Source: a virus
Taxonomy: Duplodnaviria; Caudoviricetes
IMG/VR virus record: IMGVR_UViG_3300020045_003199
Coordinates: 1-36,252 of that record
Length of the DNA stretch: 36,252 bases
Reading direction: 5' to 3' (one strand)
The notes below the pieces were generated by a model. The model saw only the letters and a program-made list of their open reading frames with translations. It had not been told where the DNA came from and searched no databases. Shown piece after piece: positions 1,303 through 34,983 of the stretch (position 1 is the stretch's first letter; every line of letters starts with the position of its first letter). A program made the translations under genes and the position numbers.

Positions 1303-1464
1303 TTATAATTCGCTAATTAATTTATTTACTAACTCTCTTACATTAGATTCACCGCCTAGTTCATATAAACGTTTTTCGCGTATATATATAGGTATTGCTT
1401 TAATTTTATTATCAATAGGTTTACGGCCTGCACCCTTTGCTCTTTTTTTAATTTCTTTTTTCAT
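1303..1464 (-). CDS. 53-aa basic DNA-binding protein (GAGRKP motif); candidate regulator, not in the ORF track
   Basis: Manual translation MKKEIKKRAKGAGRKPIDNKIKAIPIYIREKRLYELGGESNVRELVNKLISEL*; has its own promoter upstream. Confidence 0.75.
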   Translation of the reverse strand: MKKEIKKRAKGAGRKPIDNKIKAIPIYIREKRLYELGGESNVRELVNKLISEL

Positions 1465-1479
1465 GTTTTTATTTTTTTA

Positions 1480-1522
1480 CAAATATAGATATAATTTACG
1501 TTTTATTAATAGTTGTTAATAA
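1480..1522 (-). promoter_or_regulatory. Leftward promoter: TTATTAACA box plus TATATTTG -7 element (35-nt offset)
   Basis: Reverse complement of tgttaataa (1514-1522) and caaatata (1480-1487). Confidence 0.7.
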
Positions 1523-7512: not shown

Positions 7513-7800
7513 ATGACAAAACCCACGAACCACCGTCAACAAGCCGCCTCGATGTGCCTTGTGACATCAGTAAACCGTAAACATGTAGTGATGCCGTTCG
7601 TGCGTGATGACCCGCACTGGCCTGAACCTAATTACCTGAATACAGGCATGGCACTTGTCGGAGTGTTGCAGGCAGGCCAGACATTAACAGAATTTCGCAA
7701 CGATTGGATTACAATGAAGGAGACATTCGAGAGGCGGGCGATGGATATAGTGCCGGTGAAAAGGCGGGGTGGGAAGTTATTAACAAGTGAAAGAGAATAG
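7513..7800 (+). CDS. Hypothetical protein
   Basis: Operonic ORF preceded by CACCACACCC. Confidence 0.6.
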   Translation: MTKPTNHRQQAASMCLVTSVNRKHVVMPFVRDDPHWPEPNYLNTGMALVGVLQAGQTLTEFRNDWITMKETFERRAMDIVPVKRRGGKLLTSERE

Positions 7801-7819
7801 GAAAAGTTTTGTATATTTA
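7777..7819 (+). promoter_or_regulatory. Class-A promoter of the replication operon: TTATTAACA plus TATATTTA
   Basis: Box at 7777-7785, -7-like element at 7812-7819 (35-nt offset). Confidence 0.65.
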
Positions 7820-7941: not shown

Positions 7942-8577
7942 ATGGAGGCCAAGAAAACTTACTCAGAACAACTGAAAGATCCGCGCTGGCAGAAAAAGCG
8001 GCTGGAAATTATGAGCCGAGATAATTTTAAATGCATGGAATGCGGGAGCGGTAAATCGACGCTCAATGTACATCATATAAAATATGAAAAAGGCAATGCA
8101 CCATGGCAATATGAAGATTCAAATTTTAAAACATTATGTGATAATTGTCATTCATTAGAGCATATGACTGATAGAATTATGGCTTCATCAGAACTAGATA
8201 AAAAAATTGAACTGGAACGTGAAATAAATTATTGGGATGATTACGAAATAAATAAAAATATTGACTGGAATGATTTGTTTGAAAATAATACAGATATTCC
8301 GGTTGATCCTGATATGATAAAGCAATTATTACGTGCAAAAGGTGATGAAGAACACGAAAGCGGAAATTTACTTGTAATGTGTATGCTTTATGATTTTTGT
8401 GATGTTATCTCAATCGAAAATATAAATACCATTGTCTTTAAGGTGTATGGCGAATACATAAACTTATTATATTCATATAAGAATATATTGCTTCACTATT
8501 TAAGGCACAACGCACTAAATTCTGACATAAGTATAAAAGCGATTTATATTGATGGTTCTTATAGATTATACGCATGA
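7942..8577 (+). CDS. HNH endonuclease with an extra C-terminal domain
   Basis: LKDPRWQKKRLEIMSRDNFKCMECG..LNVHHIKY..TLCDNCHSLEH. Confidence 0.85.
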   Translation: MEAKKTYSEQLKDPRWQKKRLEIMSRDNFKCMECGSGKSTLNVHHIKYEKGNAPWQYEDSNFKTLCDNCHSLEHMTDRIMASSELDKKIELEREINYWDDYEINKNIDWNDLFENNTDIPVDPDMIKQLLRAKGDEEHESGNLLVMCMLYDFCDVISIENINTIVFKVYGEYINLLYSYKNILLHYLRHNALNSDISIKAIYIDGSYRLYA

Positions 8578-10787
8578 TACAGTCAGCACAGGATTATATT
8601 TCAGAGGGTTTTGGTGCATTGCCTTTGAAATCGAACAAATCACCAATGTTGCCAGAAGGGCATAATTATCTTTATTCGATAATATCAGAAGATAATATTG
8701 ATTCTCTATTTATGAGAGCCGATAAAATAGGCATTGCATGTGGTCAGGTTTCGGACGGTTTTATGTGTTTAGATTTTGATTGCCATGGAGGACAAAACAT
8801 AAGCCAGATATTTAATGAGTACATGCGAAATGAATCAATAAAAAATATTATTGATACCCATTTACTACCTGTTTACAAAACCCCATCCGGCGGGTATCAC
8901 ATTTATTTTAAGGGCGAAGTTAAGAATCACCCAGGAATGTGTTTGTCTAGGTATGAGGATAAAACGGTTATGATTGAGGTTCGTGGCCATGGTCAATATG
9001 TTTGCCTATTTCCTTCATCCGGATATAAGAAACTTTGCGGATCTGAAATAATTAAAGTATCAACAATAAGCAATGACGAAAGGGATATTTTGTTTTCTGT
9101 TGCTACTTCTTTTAACCAAGCAATAACCGCACCTGAAACCGAGAAAAAAGGTACAGGTAAATGGCCGGATAAATTTGATATTACTAAACCTATTGGAAGG
9201 TACAACGAGACAGAACAGGAACATGCAAAAAGTTTACTTTTAAATGCTGGATGGAAATTAGTAAAAGTAAGAAGGACTGATAATGTAGAAATGTGGTTAA
9301 GGCCAGGCAAAGAAGAAAACAGCGCAATAACTCACAGTGCAACTTTCGGAAAGTTTCACAACATGTTTTATGTTTATACTGAATCTGACAGCGTTTTCAA
9401 ATCGTGGACTTCTTACAGTTTATTCGATATTCTTTTAAAACTTAAATTTAATGGGAATTTTAAAGAGGCTACCGACTTTTTAAGTGAGCGATACCAAGAG
9501 AAAACAATTATAATTGATGCTCCTGAAGATGAAGATTTAGTAATTCAGGAAAGAAAAACTATTGATTTTCCTATTGAAGTGTTCCCGAAAAATTTACAGA
9601 CTTTTATAAACATGCTAAATGATACTCTGAACTATTCAAAGGATTTTTTAGCACTTTCGGCCATGTTTACCGTAGCAACAATAAACGGTAATACTTACAA
9701 ATTAAGGGTTAAAAACGGATGGATTGCGCCGTCAGTATTTTGGTTTGCTATTTTAGGGGAACCTGGAACAATGAAAACACACCCTGTTTCAATGATGACC
9801 GGGCCGCTATCAAATATTGATAAGGATAGTAAATTCATTTATGATAACCAGATGAATGACTATGAAATGTTATCAGATAAAGAGCGCAAAGGATTGAAGA
9901 AACCTAGATTTAGGCAAACGCTAATATCTGATTATACATTGGAGGCATTGCACGGGGTACATGATTTTAATAAACGCGGTATTGGTTTGTACAAAGATGA
10001 ATTGATTGGATTTCTTAACGATATGAATAAATACCGCAAGGGTTCAGATGAGCAGTTTTGGCTTGAATCATTCAATAATAAATCATATATTGTTAACCGT
10101 GTAACTAAAGAGCCGTTATATATCGACAATATAAATATAAATATTATCGGAACTATTCAGCCGCTTGAATTGAATAAAATGATAATTAATTACGGGGGTA
10201 ATGGTTTAATAGATAGATTTTTATACTCAGGAGCAGAAAGGGAAATATACCCTCTTTCGAGAAAAGAAATTAGTCAGGATTGGATTGATTGGTGGTATAA
10301 ATCTATTGAAAATAATAACGGGTTTTTTAATTACGGTAATTCAGATGACTGTAAAATAGTATCAATGACTCCGGATGCGCTTGAATTGTTTTATCAAATT
10401 GATAGTGATTTAATTGCACTTCAAAAGGTTGATAATATAACTGCAAACATGAGAGGTTATATTAATAAAATGAAAACATACCTTCCAAGGTTTGCACTCC
10501 TTATGGCCTTGTTTGATCTTATACTTGATGGAACGATTATAAATGTTACTTTGGATCACATGGAACGGGCTAATAAAATAATACAATATTTTACCGAATC
10601 TGCAAAGTCAATATTTAATGAATCGGAGGCCACTATGGAAATTGCGCAAGTTAACAGCTCAATGAATGGTAAAACAAAGAAGGAAAAAATAATTGCACTC
10701 CATAACAAGGGATTTAAAAACGTTCAAATAGCAAAAGAATTGAATGTTGCACCTTCAAACGTGAGCGCAATATTAAAAAAAGTATAA
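8574..10787 (+). CDS. Bifunctional primase-polymerase fused to a DUF3987 P-loop (helicase-like) domain and a C-terminal HTH
   Basis: IGIACG..CLDFD, KTPSGGYHIYF and IEVRGHGQYV (Prim-Pol); FPIEVFP, GEPGTMKT, DELIGF, GTIQP and GLIDRFL (DUF3987); QIAKELNVAPSNVS (HTH). Confidence 0.9.
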   Translation: MIQSAQDYISEGFGALPLKSNKSPMLPEGHNYLYSIISEDNIDSLFMRADKIGIACGQVSDGFMCLDFDCHGGQNISQIFNEYMRNESIKNIIDTHLLPVYKTPSGGYHIYFKGEVKNHPGMCLSRYEDKTVMIEVRGHGQYVCLFPSSGYKKLCGSEIIKVSTISNDERDILFSVATSFNQAITAPETEKKGTGKWPDKFDITKPIGRYNETEQEHAKSLLLNAGWKLVKVRRTDNVEMWLRPGKEENSAITHSATFGKFHNMFYVYTESDSVFKSWTSYSLFDILLKLKFNGNFKEATDFLSERYQEKTIIIDAPEDEDLVIQERKTIDFPIEVFPKNLQTFINMLNDTLNYSKDFLALSAMFTVATINGNTYKLRVKNGWIAPSVFWFAILGEPGTMKTHPVSMMTGPLSNIDKDSKFIYDNQMNDYEMLSDKERKGLKKPRFRQTLISDYTLEALHGVHDFNKRGIGLYKDELIGFLNDMNKYRKGSDEQFWLESFNNKSYIVNRVTKEPLYIDNININIIGTIQPLELNKMIINYGGNGLIDRFLYSGAEREIYPLSRKEISQDWIDWWYKSIENNNGFFNYGNSDDCKIVSMTPDALELFYQIDSDLIALQKVDNITANMRGYINKMKTYLPRFALLMALFDLILDGTIINVTLDHMERANKIIQYFTESAKSIFNESEATMEIAQVNSSMNGKTKKEKIIALHNKGFKNVQIAKELNVAPSNVSAILKKV

Positions 10788-11030
10788 CAAAGTTATATAA
10801 GTTATAGTTATGATACACGCTACACACTTAGATACTGTAAGGATTGAGGCTAAAAGTATAACTTTTATAACATTTGCCTTGTATAAAAAACTATGTGAAG
10901 TAAATAGCAAAAAAGTTATAAAGTTATATTATAATATATTATTTATATATAATATACTTATATATAGAGAGTTAAGAGAATAGAGCAGTATAACTTTTTG
11001 TATAACTTTTATATAACATTAGTATAACTT
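10783..11030. other. Putative replication origin (iteron array around an AT-rich core)
   Basis: AAGTTATA at 10790, 10799, 10913, 10921; TATAACTT at 10857, 10989, 11001, 11023; TATAACAT variants; directly downstream of the replicase. Confidence 0.75.
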
Positions 11031-11044
11031 TAAAACTAAACACC

Positions 11045-11518
11045 ATGCCAACCCCCCTCCACCGCCTCCGCACCCTCGCTCTATCAAATATCAGCGAGAC
11101 ATTACCATATCGTGAATCATTCATACATCAATACAAACCGTCAACAGCAAACGGCCTGACCCGATGTGTTATTGACTGGATAAAGTTCTCAGGTGGCCAG
11201 GCTGAACGGATATCGGTGACCGGCCGTATGATAGACAATACGAAGGTAGTATCTGACGTGATGGGACACCGGCGGATTGTTGGTTCAGTCAGCTATCAAA
11301 AGTCATCAATGACGAAAGGGAGCGCAGATATTTCGGCCATAATTAACGGTAGGTCCGTAAAGATCGAGATCAAGATAGGACGCGACAGGCAGTCCGATGC
11401 ACAGAAACAGTATGAACAGTCAGTTACTAAGGCAGGCGGGGTTTATATTATCGTTCACACGCTGGAAGATTTTGTTAATTGGTGGGATTCACAAGCGATA
11501 CAAACTAAATTATTTTAA
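11045..11518 (+). CDS. VRR-NUC/Holliday-junction-resolvase-like nuclease
   Basis: GSADI...KIEIK...QSDAQKQY...GGVYII. Confidence 0.85.
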   Translation: MPTPLHRLRTLALSNISETLPYRESFIHQYKPSTANGLTRCVIDWIKFSGGQAERISVTGRMIDNTKVVSDVMGHRRIVGSVSYQKSSMTKGSADISAIINGRSVKIEIKIGRDRQSDAQKQYEQSVTKAGGVYIIVHTLEDFVNWWDSQAIQTKLF

Positions 11519-11522
11519 GGTT

Positions 11523-12413
11523 ATGAAAGAGAAATTATTACTAAGTTATTCAGGAGGCAGGACATCAACTATAATGACTAAATGGTGTTTAGAAAACCTT
11601 CAGGAAAAATACGAAATGATCGTTGTATTTGCTAATACAGGAAAAGAACGACCGGAAACGCTTGATTTTATTAAACAGTGTGATAATGCTTTCAAATTTA
11701 ATACTGTTTGGCTGGAATGTATTACTAATCCAATCAGGGGAAAAGGAGTATCTTTTCGAATTGTAGATTACGAATCAGCAAACAGAAACGGAAAGCCCTT
11801 TACTGATATGGTTGCTAAACACGGAATACCATCAGTTAAAAGCCCACACTGCACCCGCGAACTAAAAGCATATACAATTAAGGCTTACGCTCGTTCAATT
11901 GGCTGGAAGCGATATTATACAGCTATAGGTATACGAATGGACGAAATTGATAGGATGAACGAAAAGTACAAAGAAAAAAGATTTGTTTATCCAATGATTG
12001 ACGGTAAAATGTGCCCAATGACGAAAAACGATGTTAATATATTTTGGAGCCAGCAAAGTTTTGACTTGAATCTGAAAACCTATGAGGGTAATTGTGATTT
12101 ATGTTTCAAAAAATCATTCCGTAAGTTATTGACTATTGTAAAAGAGAATCCACAATTAACTGAATATTGGAAAGATTTAGAAAGAAGTTATGATAGTTTT
12201 ATTCCTGAAGGAAAAGTAAAAAGATTAAAACCTCCATTAAGACCTTTTAGAAAAAACATTAGTATTTTTGGTATAATAGAAATGTCAAAAGGTAAATTTG
12301 ATCTAGCAACAAATGAAATCGAAGTAAAAAAGATTTTTAAACAACTTCAGTTATGGGGTGTTGACCTTGATTCAAGTAATGGATGTGAGGAAAGCTGCGA
12401 ACCGTTCCGCTAA
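11523..12413 (+). CDS. PAPS-reductase-family (PP-loop) protein
   Basis: SYSGGRTS, FANTGKE.PETLDF, CTRELK, IGIR.DE..R and GNCDLCF; start reassigned to ATG 11523. Confidence 0.85.
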   Translation: MKEKLLLSYSGGRTSTIMTKWCLENLQEKYEMIVVFANTGKERPETLDFIKQCDNAFKFNTVWLECITNPIRGKGVSFRIVDYESANRNGKPFTDMVAKHGIPSVKSPHCTRELKAYTIKAYARSIGWKRYYTAIGIRMDEIDRMNEKYKEKRFVYPMIDGKMCPMTKNDVNIFWSQQSFDLNLKTYEGNCDLCFKKSFRKLLTIVKENPQLTEYWKDLERSYDSFIPEGKVKRLKPPLRPFRKNISIFGIIEMSKGKFDLATNEIEVKKIFKQLQLWGVDLDSSNGCEESCEPFR

Positions 12414-13533: not shown

Positions 13534-13719
13534 ATGGATGAAATTAAATTAGGATCAACAGTATGTGACAAAGTAACCGGATTTACCGGAGTAGTTACAG
13601 CAGTATGTAATTATTTGTATACTTCTGCTCGTGTAGAAATAACAGCTACACGGGTAGAATCGGACGGGCAAACACAAAGCCTATGGACTGATATTGCACG
13701 GGTTGAACTCTGTAAGTAA
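13534..13719 (+). CDS. Small conserved phage protein (SH3/KOW-like)
   Basis: IKLGSTVCDKVTGFTGVVTA..YL; start reassigned to ATG 13534. Confidence 0.7.
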   Translation: MDEIKLGSTVCDKVTGFTGVVTAVCNYLYTSARVEITATRVESDGQTQSLWTDIARVELCK

Positions 13720-13723
13720 CTAC

Positions 13724-14104
13724 ATGAAACCCATAACCGCCATATCCCAAATCCTAACAGAGCAGTTTGATACAACACTCGAACAGGTATCAGTCCGTAG
13801 GCGAAACATTGACCGTGTAATCCTGAGGCAGGCTATCCATACCTGCCTAGCGCGGTACTCTGAACTCAGCTATATGGAAATTAGCGACATGACAGGCCGG
13901 CAAGATCACAGCACGGTATCACATTCGAAGCGTTGTGTTGAACGGATGGAAGAACACTGCAAGAAACACGGTGCAGTTGATAAGTTGCTTGATTGCTACA
14001 TGACTGTTGAAACTAACTATCTGCGTATAATGTTGCAGAACTCCGAAAAAGTACAGCGAAAATACAGAAGTTATAAAGAAGAACTAAAAGCGACGAGGGT
14101 ATGA
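13724..14104 (+). CDS. Stand-alone DnaA C-terminal (domain IV, Bac_DnaA_C-like) HTH protein
   Basis: RRRNIDRVILRQAI...LSYMEISDMTGRQDHSTVSHS matches the DnaA R..RQ..SL.EIG..G.RDHxTVxH signature. Confidence 0.8.
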   Translation: MKPITAISQILTEQFDTTLEQVSVRRRNIDRVILRQAIHTCLARYSELSYMEISDMTGRQDHSTVSHSKRCVERMEEHCKKHGAVDKLLDCYMTVETNYLRIMLQNSEKVQRKYRSYKEELKATRV

Positions 14105-15104: not shown

Positions 15105-15280
15105 TAATCGGCTACAAACTAAACAACGGATTCGGATATACCGAACTACCGGAACCAATCGAAGTAGAAAGTATTACTAAGATTGAGGAATTCGAACGGG
15201 CAACAGAGCGAAAACTAGGCGGTGGCGTTACAGTTGACGCTGCGTATCGTACTAAATTTATCAACAAACGGAGCGAATAG
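15095..15280 (+). CDS. Hypothetical protein
   Basis: Start reassigned to ATG 15095 (MYIIIGYKL...). Confidence 0.55.
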   Translation: MYIIIGYKLNNGFGYTELPEPIEVESITKIEEFERATERKLGGGVTVDAAYRTKFINKRSE

Positions 15281-15301
15281 GGGGAAATGGGGTTAAATTT
15301 G
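15258..15301 (+). promoter_or_regulatory. Class-A late promoter (terminase): TTATCAACA plus TAAATTTG
   Basis: Box at 15258-15266, -7 element at 15294-15301 (36-nt offset). Confidence 0.7.
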
Positions 15302-15321
15302 CTGTTAATTATCTGTAATAT

Positions 15322-15621: not shown

Positions 15622-16774
15622 TGCCGGTAACATATTCGACCGGACGCAGACAGCCTGGGAGCAGGGTAAAAAAGTAATAATACATCGCGGCGGCACCGGA
15701 TCAGGAAAAACATACGACCTTATGATTTTCCTGATTTTCTTTGTCGCTTTACTTAATCCTAACTGGATTATCACCATCGTTTCCGAATCAAAACCGCATT
15801 TAGATATTGGAGCCATCCGAATACTTAAAACCGTACTAATCAAATCTGGCCTATTCAAATCTGAACAGTTTAATATATCTACTTCTCGCTATACGTTCGA
15901 CAACGGTACTATTATTGAATTCTTTTCCGCTGATAGGATAGACAAAGCACTTGGAGCCAGAAGGAACGTTTTATATGGCAATGAGATAAACAGCTTAAAG
16001 TTTGAGGTATGGGATGAACTGGCCCGCCGTTCTGAATATATTATCGGTGACTTCAACCCAACACAACAATTTTGGTTAGAGAAGTTCATAGAGTATTATG
16101 GTGATATTGCCGTAATTCTAAGCAACTACACAGATAATCCGTTCTTACCCGAAACAGAACGAAATAGGATTATACGCCGCGCTGCAATGGACCCGAACTT
16201 TAAACGTATTCACATAGATTGCGAATATGGGAGTTATGAAGGCTTGGTTTTCACACAGTTCACACAGGTTGACGCAATACCAGACGGATTAGATCGGTTT
16301 TATGGGTTGGATTGGGGTTATACTAATGACCCCACTTCAGTAATTGAGTGTGCAATAAATGGTACAGACATTTACCTGGATGAGAAACTTTACCGCACCG
16401 GATTAACTAATTCTGACATTGCACGTATATTGATTGACTTAAAAATACGCCCGAACTACGATGAGATTTTTGCCGATTCTGCCGAACCTAAAAGTATTGA
16501 GGATTTACTACGTGCAGGATTCAATATAAAGCCGGCAATGAAGGGTGAAGATTCAATCCGGAAAGGTATTGATAAAATGAAGGAATACAACATACATATT
16601 ACCAGCCGTTCAGTCAATTTGATAAAAGAATTCCGTAACTACGCATGGATTTCAGACAAGACAGGGCAACCGACAAACAAACCTTTAGACGCGTTTAATC
16701 ACGGGATTGACGCGAGCCGTTACGCTATTATGACCAAGCTAGGCAATCCCACTCCGGTTGACTTCTTCCTTTAA
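15611..16774 (+). CDS. terL: Terminase large subunit (PBSX/SPP1-like)
   Basis: Walker A GGTGSGKT, Walker B LYGNE, DFNP, nuclease GLDWGYTNDP, DSAEPKSI and NHGIDASRY. Confidence 0.95.
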   Translation: MQIDAGNIFDRTQTAWEQGKKVIIHRGGTGSGKTYDLMIFLIFFVALLNPNWIITIVSESKPHLDIGAIRILKTVLIKSGLFKSEQFNISTSRYTFDNGTIIEFFSADRIDKALGARRNVLYGNEINSLKFEVWDELARRSEYIIGDFNPTQQFWLEKFIEYYGDIAVILSNYTDNPFLPETERNRIIRRAAMDPNFKRIHIDCEYGSYEGLVFTQFTQVDAIPDGLDRFYGLDWGYTNDPTSVIECAINGTDIYLDEKLYRTGLTNSDIARILIDLKIRPNYDEIFADSAEPKSIEDLLRAGFNIKPAMKGEDSIRKGIDKMKEYNIHITSRSVNLIKEFRNYAWISDKTGQPTNKPLDAFNHGIDASRYAIMTKLGNPTPVDFFL

Positions 16775-16775
16775 T

Positions 16776-16818
16776 TTATCAACAAATAAACAAAACAAAA
16801 CAAAGTAGTATATATTTG
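16776..16818 (+). promoter_or_regulatory. Class-A late promoter (portal): TTATCAACA plus TATATTTG
   Basis: Box at 16776-16784, -7 element at 16811-16818 (35-nt offset). Confidence 0.7.
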
Positions 16819-21473: not shown

Positions 21474-21481
21474 TATCTTTG
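21474..21481 (+). promoter_or_regulatory. -7 element TATCTTTG upstream of the glycosyltransferase cassette
   Basis: Matches TAnnTTTG; 13 nt before ATG 21495. Confidence 0.55.
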
Positions 21482-21494
21482 CTAAAACCACACC

Positions 21495-22061
21495 ATGAAA
21501 GCAGCTGTTATAAACCTCACAACCAGAATAGACCGATTGCACGCAGTCCGCAAACAGTTTGAATCGTTCGGACTAAAAGAATACGACGTATTTCCGGCCT
21601 ACAATTCACCGGATGCACTCCGCGCCAATGCCCGTTCACACATGGAGTTAATTAAAAATGGGTATAATCTAATCTTTGAAGATGATGTTTTCTTTGAGGG
21701 TACAATAGACCAGCTACCGCTATCAGAACTTCCACCCGATTGGGATATATTGTACTTAGGTGGTAATGTTATCGAACCACTTAAAAGGTTTTCAGCTAAC
21801 TTGCACCGATGCACAGCAGCATGGGGTTCATTCGCTATTATGTACAGTCCTTCAGGTTTACAGTATGTTAAGGACTGTTACCGGATTGAACCGTTTACGA
21901 TATATGATGAATGGCTACGGGTAAGAAGTAAGGCCACACTACAAGCCTATATTCTGAGTACACCAATCGCATGGACGCGGGGCGGGTATTCGGATGTTAA
22001 CCATTGTATTGAGAATTACGAACCACAGATGAGGAAGAATGCTAGAGTTAATATTGTATGA
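21495..22061 (+). CDS. Glycosyltransferase, GT25-like
   Basis: INLTTRIDR, RSH, LIFEDD and PPDWDILYLGG. Confidence 0.85.
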   Translation: MKAAVINLTTRIDRLHAVRKQFESFGLKEYDVFPAYNSPDALRANARSHMELIKNGYNLIFEDDVFFEGTIDQLPLSELPPDWDILYLGGNVIEPLKRFSANLHRCTAAWGSFAIMYSPSGLQYVKDCYRIEPFTIYDEWLRVRSKATLQAYILSTPIAWTRGGYSDVNHCIENYEPQMRKNARVNIV

Positions 22062-22888
22062 GGAATATACCTAAGATAGCGCATTTAGTTTGGTTCGGCG
22101 ACCAACACATGCCGTTAATCAACGTATTTACCATTACGACCTTTCACCGATTGAATCCTGACTGGGAAATTAAAGTTTACACTTCGAAGCAAGGTAATAA
22201 AGACTTTGGTACATTGGAGTGGATACCGCCGTATACAGGAAAGGACTATTTCGAACTAATCAGGGCAATGTCATACGTTCAAATTATTGAAGTTGATCTT
22301 AAAGACTTCGATTGTCCTGTTCATGCTCACGTTATTGCAATGACAGACGTATTCAGGCAACAGGTTTTATTCCGTGAAGGTGGTATTTATTCTGACTTTG
22401 ATGTGATATGGTTACGTCCGATGTCGTACTTTACTGAATTGGATTGCATCGGTGATACTTCGGACTTTCAATGTACAGTTAGTTACTTTAAAACTATTGA
22501 CGGGCATCACAACGTATCAAATATAATTGCGGAACCTGGCAGCGAATTTCTGAAATACACTTTATCGAAATGCGCTAACATGCCGCCGCCGTACTCACAT
22601 CAAGCGTTCGGAACTGACTTGTTTAATAAACTATTCCCGTACAAGGAAGATATAGACGCGAAGTTTAACAGGATGTTATTTCTGAAGTATGAGACGTTCT
22701 TTCCGTTCGGGATTTATAACCTGATTGACTTATTCCAGCGACATGATGAAACTCCAGCGTACCAGCCTAATGTAATGGCTGTACATTGGTTCGGTGGGCA
22801 TCCGTTCGCACATGCTTACATTGATAATGACGGGTTTAACAGAAAGTGTGCAATGACAACGATTTTAAAAAGAGAGGGGTTAATATGA
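22058..22888 (+). CDS. Glycosyltransferase, GT32/DXD (OCH1-like)
   Basis: IPKIAHLVWFG, NPDWE, DVFR..VLFREGGIYSDFD and AVHW. Confidence 0.88.
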   Translation: MRNIPKIAHLVWFGDQHMPLINVFTITTFHRLNPDWEIKVYTSKQGNKDFGTLEWIPPYTGKDYFELIRAMSYVQIIEVDLKDFDCPVHAHVIAMTDVFRQQVLFREGGIYSDFDVIWLRPMSYFTELDCIGDTSDFQCTVSYFKTIDGHHNVSNIIAEPGSEFLKYTLSKCANMPPPYSHQAFGTDLFNKLFPYKEDIDAKFNRMLFLKYETFFPFGIYNLIDLFQRHDETPAYQPNVMAVHWFGGHPFAHAYIDNDGFNRKCAMTTILKREGLI

Positions 22889-23850
22889 AAGTACTTTATC
22901 ATTTGCATGCGTATGTTCCTGAGCACAACGCCGGAGCCGAATGGATGGCACACGCTATCTTAAAATGGCTTGTTAAAGAAGGACATGAATGCCATGTAAT
23001 AACTACATGTGAAGCGAACTACGAATATGACGGGGTTAAAGTCTATCAGGATGATTTCGATAACTGTAACCGTGAATGGCGTTGGTGTGATGTCGGATTA
23101 ACGCATTTGGTCCGCGCCGGCAAGGCTTGGAACTGGTCACACGAAGTAAATAAACCGATTGTTTATGTCGTTCACAATACTTTTACTAATCGTTTGGTTG
23201 AAGTAAAGCAGAATTTTGCACTGATATTTAACACTGATTGGGCGAAAGTGGACGCTGTTAATAAGGGTTACAAACATAAAAACATCGTTTTGCATCCGCC
23301 TGTATGGGTTGAAGATTACAAAACAGACCGAAAAGGAGCTGAATATATCACCCTTATTAATTGCTGGGATCGTAAAGGCGGGCATGTACTTGCTGAATTG
23401 GCCCGATTAATGCCAGATCAAAAGTTTCTCGGCGTGCTAGGTGGTTATGGTGAACAGGTGCAAGCTGTATTGCCAAATCTTGAATACATTGAAAACACGC
23501 CGGACATTAAAAGCGTTTACCAGCGTACAAAACTGTTAATCATGCCGTCGGTTTATGAATCATACGGGCGTACAGCGGTTGAGGCTATGTGTTCCGGTAT
23601 TCCTGTAATTGCTTCGGGTACTCCTGGCCTTCGTGAATCATTGGATGATTGCGGTACGTTCTGTTCTGAAGTTTCAGAGCCACATCAGTTGAAGCCGGAA
23701 GAGTTCAAAGAGAAAATTTATCAACTATTTAATGAAACGCTTTACAATGAACTATCTTTGAAGTCTTTGAAACGGGCTGAAGAATTGGAGAAACGAAGCA
23801 TTAAAGAACTTAAAAACCTGGTTAAATGGCTACAAAACTTATCGCACTAA
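22885..23850 (+). CDS. Glycosyltransferase, GT4 (GT-B fold)
   Basis: GAE, RKG and MPSVYESYGRTAVEAMCSGIPVIAS; start reassigned to ATG 22885. Confidence 0.9.
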   Translation: MKVLYHLHAYVPEHNAGAEWMAHAILKWLVKEGHECHVITTCEANYEYDGVKVYQDDFDNCNREWRWCDVGLTHLVRAGKAWNWSHEVNKPIVYVVHNTFTNRLVEVKQNFALIFNTDWAKVDAVNKGYKHKNIVLHPPVWVEDYKTDRKGAEYITLINCWDRKGGHVLAELARLMPDQKFLGVLGGYGEQVQAVLPNLEYIENTPDIKSVYQRTKLLIMPSVYESYGRTAVEAMCSGIPVIASGTPGLRESLDDCGTFCSEVSEPHQLKPEEFKEKIYQLFNETLYNELSLKSLKRAEELEKRSIKELKNLVKWLQNLSH

Positions 23851-33454: not shown

Positions 33455-33497
33455 TTGTTAACAATCTGAACAAACGCATATAAATACTTTAATTTTG
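33455..33497 (+). promoter_or_regulatory. Class-A late promoter: TTGTTAACA plus TAATTTTG
   Basis: Box at 33455-33463, -7 element at 33490-33497 (35-nt offset); ATG at 33503. Confidence 0.65.
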
Positions 33498-33858: not shown

Positions 33859-34983
33859 ATGGCAGATAAAACACTAACAAAAACAGCAGCCCAAATAGAT
33901 GTAATTCTTGGAGCTATAAATGTCTCTAATCAAACAAACTTTGTTAAGTCCCTATTTATCGGTGATGGGGGTACGCATGTTGACAATACCGGAACCGATG
34001 CAGGCGATTATAATTTAATCGTAGGAATGGGAGCCGGAGCAGCACAAACCATTGCAAAGCGTAATACTTTGGTAGGTGCTAATGCGGGGGCTGCTATCAC
34101 TTCCGGATGGGCTAATACATTCGTTGGATCAGGCGCAGGTGCAACCGGTGTCGGAACCGGCAGTCTTGACGTTTCGGGCAATGGCGGTGAGTTTTATGCA
34201 AATACAGCCGTAGGGGAGGGAAGTATGGGAGTTGCCACTATTGCCAGTTATAACACCGCATTAGGCACTAACACTCTTACAAAACTAACAGAAGGTCATA
34301 ATAATGTCGCAATAGGGGTGCATGCACTTAATGAAAATTTAGTTGGTGATGCAAATGTAGCAATCGGAAGAAACGCACTTTATAACAATACAGGTGATTA
34401 CTGTGTTGCAGTTGGAGCTAATGCCGGACAGAACCATGCAAGCGCAGGAAGTATAACAGCTTTTGGCTATGCAGCAGGACAAAAAAACAATAACATCGGA
34501 GCAAATACATATTTTGGATATATGGCCGGGGTTGAAAATGTAGCTGGCTATCAAAACACATTTATTGGTTATCAGGCTGGATTAAGTTCAACTGGTAAAA
34601 ATCAATATTACAATACTATTATAGGTCATCAGGCCGGATTTTCAGCAGGGAATTGTGAGGGAAACACTTATATAGGTGTTTCGGCTGGCTATACTAAAAC
34701 AACCGGAGATTATAATACCTTCATTGGTTACGATGCCGGGAAAAATGGTTCACAGTTAGCAACGGCAGCTAATTCAACAGGAATAGGTAACGGTGCATAT
34801 ACAACCGCTTCAAATCAAATTGTTTTTGGTAATTCATCAGTTACAGATACTTACTTCGGTTCAGTTTCGGGGGCTTCAAAAATCTATGCAAGTAAAGCAA
34901 GATTTACAGCAATTCCGACAAGTGCAAGCGGATTAAGTGCGGGTGATATTTGGAGCGATTCAGGAACATTAAAAATAGTATAA
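33859..34983 (+). CDS. Fibre/receptor-binding protein with YadA-head-like beta-roll repeats
   Basis: Many ~14-aa NTxxGxxAG/NVAIG repeats; C-terminal LSAGDIWSDSGTLKI. Confidence 0.8.
   Translation: MADKTLTKTAAQIDVILGAINVSNQTNFVKSLFIGDGGTHVDNTGTDAGDYNLIVGMGAGAAQTIAKRNTLVGANAGAAITSGWANTFVGSGAGATGVGTGSLDVSGNGGEFYANTAVGEGSMGVATIASYNTALGTNTLTKLTEGHNNVAIGVHALNENLVGDANVAIGRNALYNNTGDYCVAVGANAGQNHASAGSITAFGYAAGQKNNNIGANTYFGYMAGVENVAGYQNTFIGYQAGLSSTGKNQYYNTIIGHQAGFSAGNCEGNTYIGVSAGYTKTTGDYNTFIGYDAGKNGSQLATAANSTGIGNGAYTTASNQIVFGNSSVTDTYFGSVSGASKIYASKARFTAIPTSASGLSAGDIWSDSGTLKIV

Follow-up and report, generated by a model that had tools for sequence, protein, structure and literature searches.

The C protein of phage Mu binds at −43.5 on the Mu late promoters (PMC2582627). 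For the Ltr activators (RinA, ArpU and LtrA-C), a gene of ~130 amino acids ends the early module and its site is located just after it (PMC3753634). In the gene transfer agent of Rhodobacter capsulatus, a DnaA-like domain in GafA is needed to activate the virion genes, and in the Hyphomicrobiales a small separate DnaA-like gene is described before gafA (PMC9638019). The DnaA box has the consensus TT(A/T)TNCACA, and both TTATCAACA and TTATTAACA appear among the DnaA* box variants of T5-like phages (10.1101/866236). Promoters of the Bacteroidota are described as having a −7 element, TAnnTTTG, at −12 to −5 and a TTTG element near −33 (PMC6847099, PMC7366714, PMC9723704), the −33 element being weak in a genome-wide study of F. 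johnsoniae.

Many Bacteroidota phages have a stand-alone DnaA domain IV gene, currently annotated as coding for a replication protein. Such genes are carried by cultured Flavobacterium, Cellulophaga and Tenacibaculum phages, and those of mumin6-1, phi19:3 and Gundel_1 have already been annotated via PF08299 or as DnaA. A literature search, mostly of open-access main texts, found neither a published function or target for a phage mini-DnaA nor a description of the promoter class considered below. The locus analyzed here offers a concrete target word, position and promoter set for such genes.

The phage and its stand-alone DnaA domain IV protein

The window, i.e., the whole stretch of DNA analyzed (36,252 bases), is an entire virus record with direct terminal repeats. 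Using PHROGs, a tailed-phage layout was identified, with exonuclease, methyltransferase, primase-helicase, terminase, portal, head, neck, tail and tail-spike-like genes. In the 66 ORFs scanned, no integrase was detected. The terminase shares 67–68% identity with copies in two Bacteroidales genome bins and TAnnTTTG words are present in the intergenic regions, from which the host is inferred to be a member of the Bacteroidota. The genes of most concern here are:

8574–10787: primase-helicase (PHROGs)
11397–12413: PAPS-reductase-family gene, within the replication operon
13724–14104, plus strand: stand-alone DnaA domain IV protein, candidate activator (Pfam, profile, AlphaFold and Foldseek)
from 15611: terminase large subunit (PHROGs)
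from 16841: portal (PHROGs)

The 13724 ORF encodes 126 amino acids, or 136 if translation starts at the TTG at 13694, and its product is a stand-alone DnaA domain IV. The preliminary description had recognized this domain by its signature and proposed an HMM search against PF08299 (Bac_DnaA_C), which scored above cut-off (35.0 vs. 31.5 bits, E 1.4e-8, residues 5–70), this being the only Pfam family to do so. The AAA+ and N-terminal domains of DnaA are absent, and 126 amino acids leave no space for the former. A family profile built from 22 sequences matched DnaA chains exclusively in the PDB (E 7.6e-13 to 1J1V). The AlphaFold model has a pLDDT of 94, and its best five Foldseek matches were all DnaA with a probability of 1.0 (best E 5e-3, with nothing at E ≤ 0.001). 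This model also places two C-terminal helices (residues 87–105 and 117–124) outside the Pfam domain. The DH(S/T/A)T motif of the recognition helix is kept (GRQDHSTVSH, as against GGRDHSTVIH in Bacteroidota DnaA), as is the basic loop (RRRN, as against KTRK).

A HMMER search of 1.84 billion representatives returned 41 rows, the query among them, the best relatives being 110–145 amino acids in length with identity of up to 46%. Word-index searches from the single protein returned zero relatives, and the 22-sequence alignment was too variable for use in a locus search. Among 160 loci selected by their terminase, a stand-alone DnaA domain IV gene was present in 27.

Although the protein belongs to DnaA domain IV, a role as replication initiator is unlikely, because the likely origin of replication has other repeats and no box. 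This AT-rich region (10780–11035) lies directly after the primase-helicase gene and holds 11 TATAAC/GTTATA words. Repeats also occur beside the primase-helicase homologs of two related phages, with ten TTTTTAACA-type words in G005 and TTGTTAC repeats in G301, and as the words of all three phages differ, repeats at this position are phage-specific. No origin-type cluster of at least three box-like words was found in the window, and the origin-initiator role was set aside on this ground.

Two further groups of genes deserve mention. Three glycosyltransferase-like genes (21495–23850), of which two are common to G029 and G301, separate the major capsid gene from the neck genes; they are possibly involved in virion glycosylation. 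A leftward gene of 53 amino acids (1303–1464, minus strand) bears a GAGRKP motif and has a homolog in G029, with no Pfam or PHROG match. It is directed away from the early operon, from which a highly AT-rich gap separates it, and as a guess its product could be a small DNA-binding repressor.

Predicted box-containing promoters in the window and in related phages

The preliminary description had listed five promoters in which a DnaA-box-like word precedes a −7 element at a fixed distance. All of their coordinates were confirmed, with start-to-start offsets of 35, 35, 36, 35 and 35 nt, and a probable sixth pair that had been overlooked is added here:

1480–1522, minus strand: box TTATTAACA (1522–1514) and −7 element TATATTTG (1487–1480); predicted leftward promoter of the 53-amino-acid gene and an HNH gene
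7777–7819, plus strand: box TTATTAACA (7777–7785) and −7 element TATATTTA (7812–7819); predicted promoter of the HNH, primase-helicase and mini-DnaA operon
15258–15301, plus strand: box TTATCAACA and −7 element TAAATTTG, offset 36; predicted promoter of the terminase genes
16776–16818, plus strand: box TTATCAACA and −7 element TATATTTG; predicted portal/head promoter
23718–23760, plus strand: probable sixth site with one mismatch, TTATCAACT at 23718 and TATCTTTG at 23753, offset 35
33455–33497, plus strand: box TTGTTAACA and −7 element TAATTTTG; predicted promoter of the 33503 gene and the tail-spike-like block

The sixth site sits within a glycosyltransferase gene, 65 nt ahead of the neck/tail block. 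Box copies lacking a −7 element also proved more numerous than first listed, with two more at 33978 (minus strand) and 35176 (plus strand). The block behind the 33455 promoter had been described as one of fiber and lysis genes; a tail-spike-like gene and an unassigned gene of 116 amino acids are indeed found there, but no lysis gene was identified.

The word TTRTYAACA has 11 strand-matches (nine loci) in the window, compared with 3.3 ± 2.0 in shuffled sequence and at least 11 in 0 of 100 shuffles; some of the sites are perfect palindromes. Pairs with TAnnTTT(G/A) number five at offsets 35–36 and zero in all other two-offset windows from 15 to 60 (p = 2.6e-8 under an AT-rich-window null). With the −7 element placed at −12 to −5 (PMC6847099) and start sites predicted on this basis, the box, with consensus TWRTNAACA, is located at about −47 to −39, in a single orientation throughout. 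Eight intergenic −7 candidates were listed for the window, and in four of them the box is missing at 35–36 or shifted by one. It is absent from the promoter at 21474, after the capsid gene, and from a candidate rightward early promoter near 1691, which has a TTTG upstream. A sigma-70 promoter and terminator scan gave a signal at shuffle level. A reverse box-like word, TAATTAACA (15303–15311, minus strand), lies just past the −7 element of the terminase promoter and covers the predicted start.

Across the Bacteroidota, the −33 TTG is clear in the ribosomal-protein promoters of rplM and rplU (L723–L782), where 37 of 42 proximal host promoters have a TTG placed 19–24 nt upstream of the −7 element, as against 6 of 42 box promoters. 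The shortage is not specific to box promoters, since the other phage −7 candidates are equally poor (42 of 206). The box promoters thus look like promoters with an activator-dependent layout, in which the −33 element is mostly missing.

The arrangement is retained in related phages. The promoter before the 33503 homolog has a box at offset 35 in five of five records (G000, G005, G029, G034 and G301) with diverged spacers. Promoters matching the terminase promoter with its box were found in G005, G029, G301, G356, L412 and L477, and the portal promoter box is also present in G005, G356 and L412. Phage G029 has an internal site in its glycosyltransferase cluster, like that at 23718 in the window, while a clear box is missing from its homolog of the 1480–1522 promoter. 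Phage G005, found via its homolog of the 13724 protein, has five sites at offset 35 and none at any other offset from 20 to 51; its terminase and portal are unrelated to those of the window, yet gene and boxes are retained. Phage G301 was initially a counter-example and was dropped as such when the variant T(T/A)ATGAACA was found at both of its matching late promoters; it also has a tandem pair of boxes 11 nt apart at the end of the mini-DnaA gene. The candidate promoter after the mini-DnaA gene of G034 has no box.

Some observations on other records are worth recording. At three mini-DnaA loci (L525, L556 and L560), TTGTTAACA- or TTTATTAACA-like words occur ~17–20 nt upstream of the −7 element, where they cover the −33 region, in a phase that differs from the 35–36 offset. 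Locus L358 (PP511318.1) is filed as Microviridae, yet is 35.8 kb in length with terminase and portal genes, so that this label is probably wrong. In the host genome G163, an identical box-plus−7 sequence is found three times (C9:12–55, C90:12–55 and C141:7543–7586), two of the copies being at contig ends, as for an insertion-sequence end with an outward promoter.

Association of box and gene, and the reader of the box

The box was found in all six members of the clade of the 13724 protein (SH-aLRT 84 in a quick tree), G005 and G301 having been found by the gene, L412 and L477 by the terminase and G034 by the box. Box-positive proteins outside this clade are scattered in the poorly resolved quick tree. 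Of the 160 loci selected by terminase, 27 carry the gene (363 kb) and have nine pairs at offsets 35–36 and seven at 30 other offsets; the 133 without it (1,028 kb) have one and 21, respectively. Six of the nine pairs are accounted for by G301, by G029 and by a near-duplicate of the latter, and the query alignment had included the terminases of both G301 and G029. For the 34 whole records from this set (those of at least 10 kb among 80 viral loci, 33 being below 90% completeness), three of the nine with the gene have the box, compared with 0 of the 25 lacking it (p = 0.014, rising to 0.053 once the G029 near-duplicate is removed).

Sets selected by the box gave a less uniform outcome. In a strict scan, for which 50 of 105 loci were submitted and 48 records searched, the gene was present in 5 of 13 records with at least two sites and in 3 of 35 with one (p = 0.025); for records at least 90% complete, these figures are three of four and two of eight (p = 0.22). 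In the first set selected by the box, for which 49 of 121 loci were submitted and 47 searched, there was no clear excess, as the gene was found in 5 of the 47 and in 2 of the 47 controls with another spacing.

The box lies −6 to +8 nt from the stop codon of the gene in 5 of 14 gene-plus-box records; in the window this distance is 1154 nt. One of the five is the cultured phage Gundel_1 (gene at 16309–16734, box at 16742), with an exact box 8 nt past the stop codon and before a replication gene. It is the only one of four cultured gene-bearing genomes tested with an exact box at offset 35, and four cultured phages without the gene have no exact box at 35–36.

One of the refuting outcomes named in the preliminary description, a box equally common in phages lacking the gene, was partly borne out. 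In the complete 81-kb record G353, two box promoters lie between genes and neither Pfam nor two profiles detected a DnaA domain IV; the gene behind one of its boxes has no Pfam match above cut-off. Records with at least two sites and no gene also include G027, G028, G031, G051, G345, G349, G373 and G379, which are 12–69% complete. Conversely, of the 39 phage mini-DnaA sequences placed in the tree, 25 originate from a record or locus without the box; many of these are fragments, though the complete cultured phages mumin6-1, phi19:3 and Arctus_1 are among the box-less carriers. Taken over these sequence sets, the co-occurrence appears weakly positive.

With regard to the box itself, its likeness to the DnaA box was upheld, and it is a genuine variant of the host phylum as judged by its enrichment upstream of Bacteroidota dnaA genes. 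In 30 such upstream regions, some from genomes related to each other, TTATCCACA occurs 24 times (16 of 30 regions), TTATCAACA 14 times (13 of 30), TTATTAACA six times and TTGTCAACA five times, compared with 0.3–0.45 expected per word; TTGTTAACA, the 33455 box, does not occur. In 30 sites from nine related records, position 5 is free (C13, T11, G3, A3) and positions 6–8 are AAC in all 30. These sites were collected at no more than one mismatch, with C at position 6 admissible; three of the nine records were box-selected and a few sites lie inside ORFs. The free position 5 matches the DnaA consensus, and a polar, single-domain reader is therefore favored; there was no enrichment of the reverse box orientation. 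The canonical C at position 6 was found at none of the 30 sites, and canonical TTATCCACA at the offset in none of the 160 terminase loci. As the host dnaA regions hold both position-6 forms about equally (41 and 37), this suggests that the box may be read by something other than host DnaA.

In host genomes, the box with its spacing shows no enrichment as a general promoter feature, in keeping with the phage system first proposed. Across 201 Bacteroidota genomes, the pattern was hit 53 times (39 genomes) at offset 35–36 and 48 times (34 genomes) at the control offset of 30–31; a looser pattern gave 16 and 16 in five host genomes, and ten genes 3' of host hits have no common theme. The exact box was present at 0 of 70 candidate −7 sites before host rplM/rplU, and a one-mismatch box at three of 70, two of these in G001, whose terminase is the closest among the cell genomes. 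A general host promoter or UP element was ruled out as a candidate by the lack of excess in the 201 and five genomes and by the 0 of 70 exact matches.

Based on these comparisons, we propose that mini-DnaA activates the box promoters as the phage's own switch for its replication and virion genes, a proposal to which we would give an even chance. It would bind the boxes and recruit the host RNA polymerase, turning on the replication, head and tail genes. A single monomer would occupy the polar 9-mer TWRTNAACA centered near −43, beside the position of sigma region 4, its contact compensating for the missing −33 contact; the extra C-terminal helices might, speculatively, contact the polymerase. 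The first molecules may come from read-through from the box-less early promoter near 1691, which could supply them because no terminator was called before 7777 (scan from 7300), after which mini-DnaA would raise the expression of its own operon (7812) and turn on the late blocks. The activator role put forward in the preliminary description is thus supported by the domain, the box variant, its absence from hosts, the activator layout and the clade link, while the boxes of gene-less G353 and the gene carriers without a box count against it. More tentatively, with a chance that we would put appreciably below even, the captured domain could be a freestanding, ATP-independent activator that reads the box in place of the −33 element, with boxes shared with host DnaA, so that the lytic program would begin on a host replication signal before the phage copy takes over.

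Host DnaA might likewise occupy the boxes, if only speculatively, and it could even be the activator itself, with phage expression tied to its level or ATP state and mini-DnaA being a secondary competitor or modulator or acting at the host origin. We consider this a doubtful but serious alternative. The occurrence of TTATCAACA beside TTATCCACA upstream of dnaA (14 times, 0.3 expected) speaks for it, as do the two box promoters of G353, the box heading the very operon that contains the mini-DnaA gene, and the activation of nrdAB and lambda transcription by host DnaA (PMC8203912). Set against these are the absence of the canonical word from the 30 sites and from the offset in the terminase loci, the lack of such a promoter class in hosts, and the contrast between the six of six clade members with the box and the 0 of 25 gene-less terminase relatives. 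The phage protein is favored over host DnaA because of this clade link, the gene-adjacent sites and the lack of a canonical box at the offset. A reader unrelated to DnaA is unlikely, whether the polymerase alpha subunit in a UP-like contact, another host factor or another phage protein, possibly one that binds the palindrome TTGTTAACAA as a dimer. Speaking for such a reader are the AT-richness of the site and its position, about that of proximal UP elements; some sites are perfect palindromes, and one-mismatch boxes do occur before host rplM/rplU, two of the three in G001. Yet none of the 70 host candidates has the exact box and the five host genomes show no excess. A palindrome reader would not be expected to leave position 5 variable with its mirror position 6 fixed, an asymmetry by which the dimer was disfavored, and in an all-against-all comparison no other G000 protein was common to all box-bearing records compared.

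Binding by mini-DnaA could also repress or time the promoters by blocking upstream contacts of the polymerase, which we regard as improbable. DnaA does repress several promoters (PMC8203912) and one box precedes the operon of the gene itself, as in negative feedback. The site, however, is upstream of the core promoter, in rigid phase and polarity and with the −33 element mostly missing, and repression of terminase, portal and tail promoters would ill suit a phage with no integrase among the 66 ORFs scanned. That the pairs are chance words in AT-rich intergenic DNA is very improbable. Single pattern matches without a second site, found in 39 of 47 records (viral contigs), and a loose viral scan (gaps 10–40) without a peak at offset 35–36 are what chance would give; for the clade of mini-DnaA, chance is refuted by the p-value of 2.6e-8 in the window, the five sites of G005 at offset 35 with none elsewhere, and the offset conserved in related phages.

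Comparison with known systems

Should mini-DnaA indeed activate the box promoters, it would define a new family of transcription activators that phages derived from the host initiator; it would also supply a small inducible promoter–activator pair for genetic work in the Bacteroidota. Should the boxes be read by host DnaA, this would link the virion genes of the phage to the cell cycle of its host.

The 13724 protein shares its fold and signature (RQ ... DHSTV) with DnaA domain IV (E. coli 1J1V; M. tuberculosis 3PVP; PF08299), and differs from DnaA in the absence of the AAA+ and N-terminal domains and in its two extra C-terminal helices. The cultured-phage "DnaA protein" genes of mumin6-1, phi19:3 and Gundel_1 are of the same kind as the 13724 gene. 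The window box matches words enriched upstream of Bacteroidota dnaA; unlike DnaA boxes in origin arrays, those of the window are single and located at promoters, with A in place of C at position 6. The DnaA* boxes of T5, as described, lie in the injection-stop region and not at promoters, and their reader is full-length host DnaA (10.1101/866236). Host DnaA also activates promoters at nrdAB and in lambda, again as the full-length host protein (PMC8203912).

GafA resembles the 13724 protein, a candidate activator, in that it has a DnaA-like DNA-binding domain (at its N-terminus) and activates phage-like virion genes. It differs in its size (42 kDa), its sigma-like C-terminal domain, its contact with the omega subunit and its chromosomal location, and no DnaA-box site is named for it in the account consulted (PMC9638019).

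Mu C and Mor are likewise small phage proteins, acting at promoters that keep the downstream element and lack the upstream hexamer, and the center of the site at −43.5 compares with about −43 here. These are, by contrast, dimers of another family on a 16-bp dyad, as against a polar 9-mer and a DnaA domain in the window (PMC2582627). In the Ltr systems the site is located just past the activator gene, an arrangement seen in 5 of 14 gene-plus-box records, while in the window the two are 1154 nt apart. These systems differ in their direct repeats at the terS promoter, their Gram-positive temperate phages and cI control (PMC3753634), whereas in the window the box is at several promoters, such repeats are lacking, the protein has another fold and an integrase was not found. 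The 13724 protein had no Pfam or PHROG match to the Mor/C or the RinA/ArpU/Ltr families. By analogy, the system would work like Mu C or Ltr activation while being a member of neither family.
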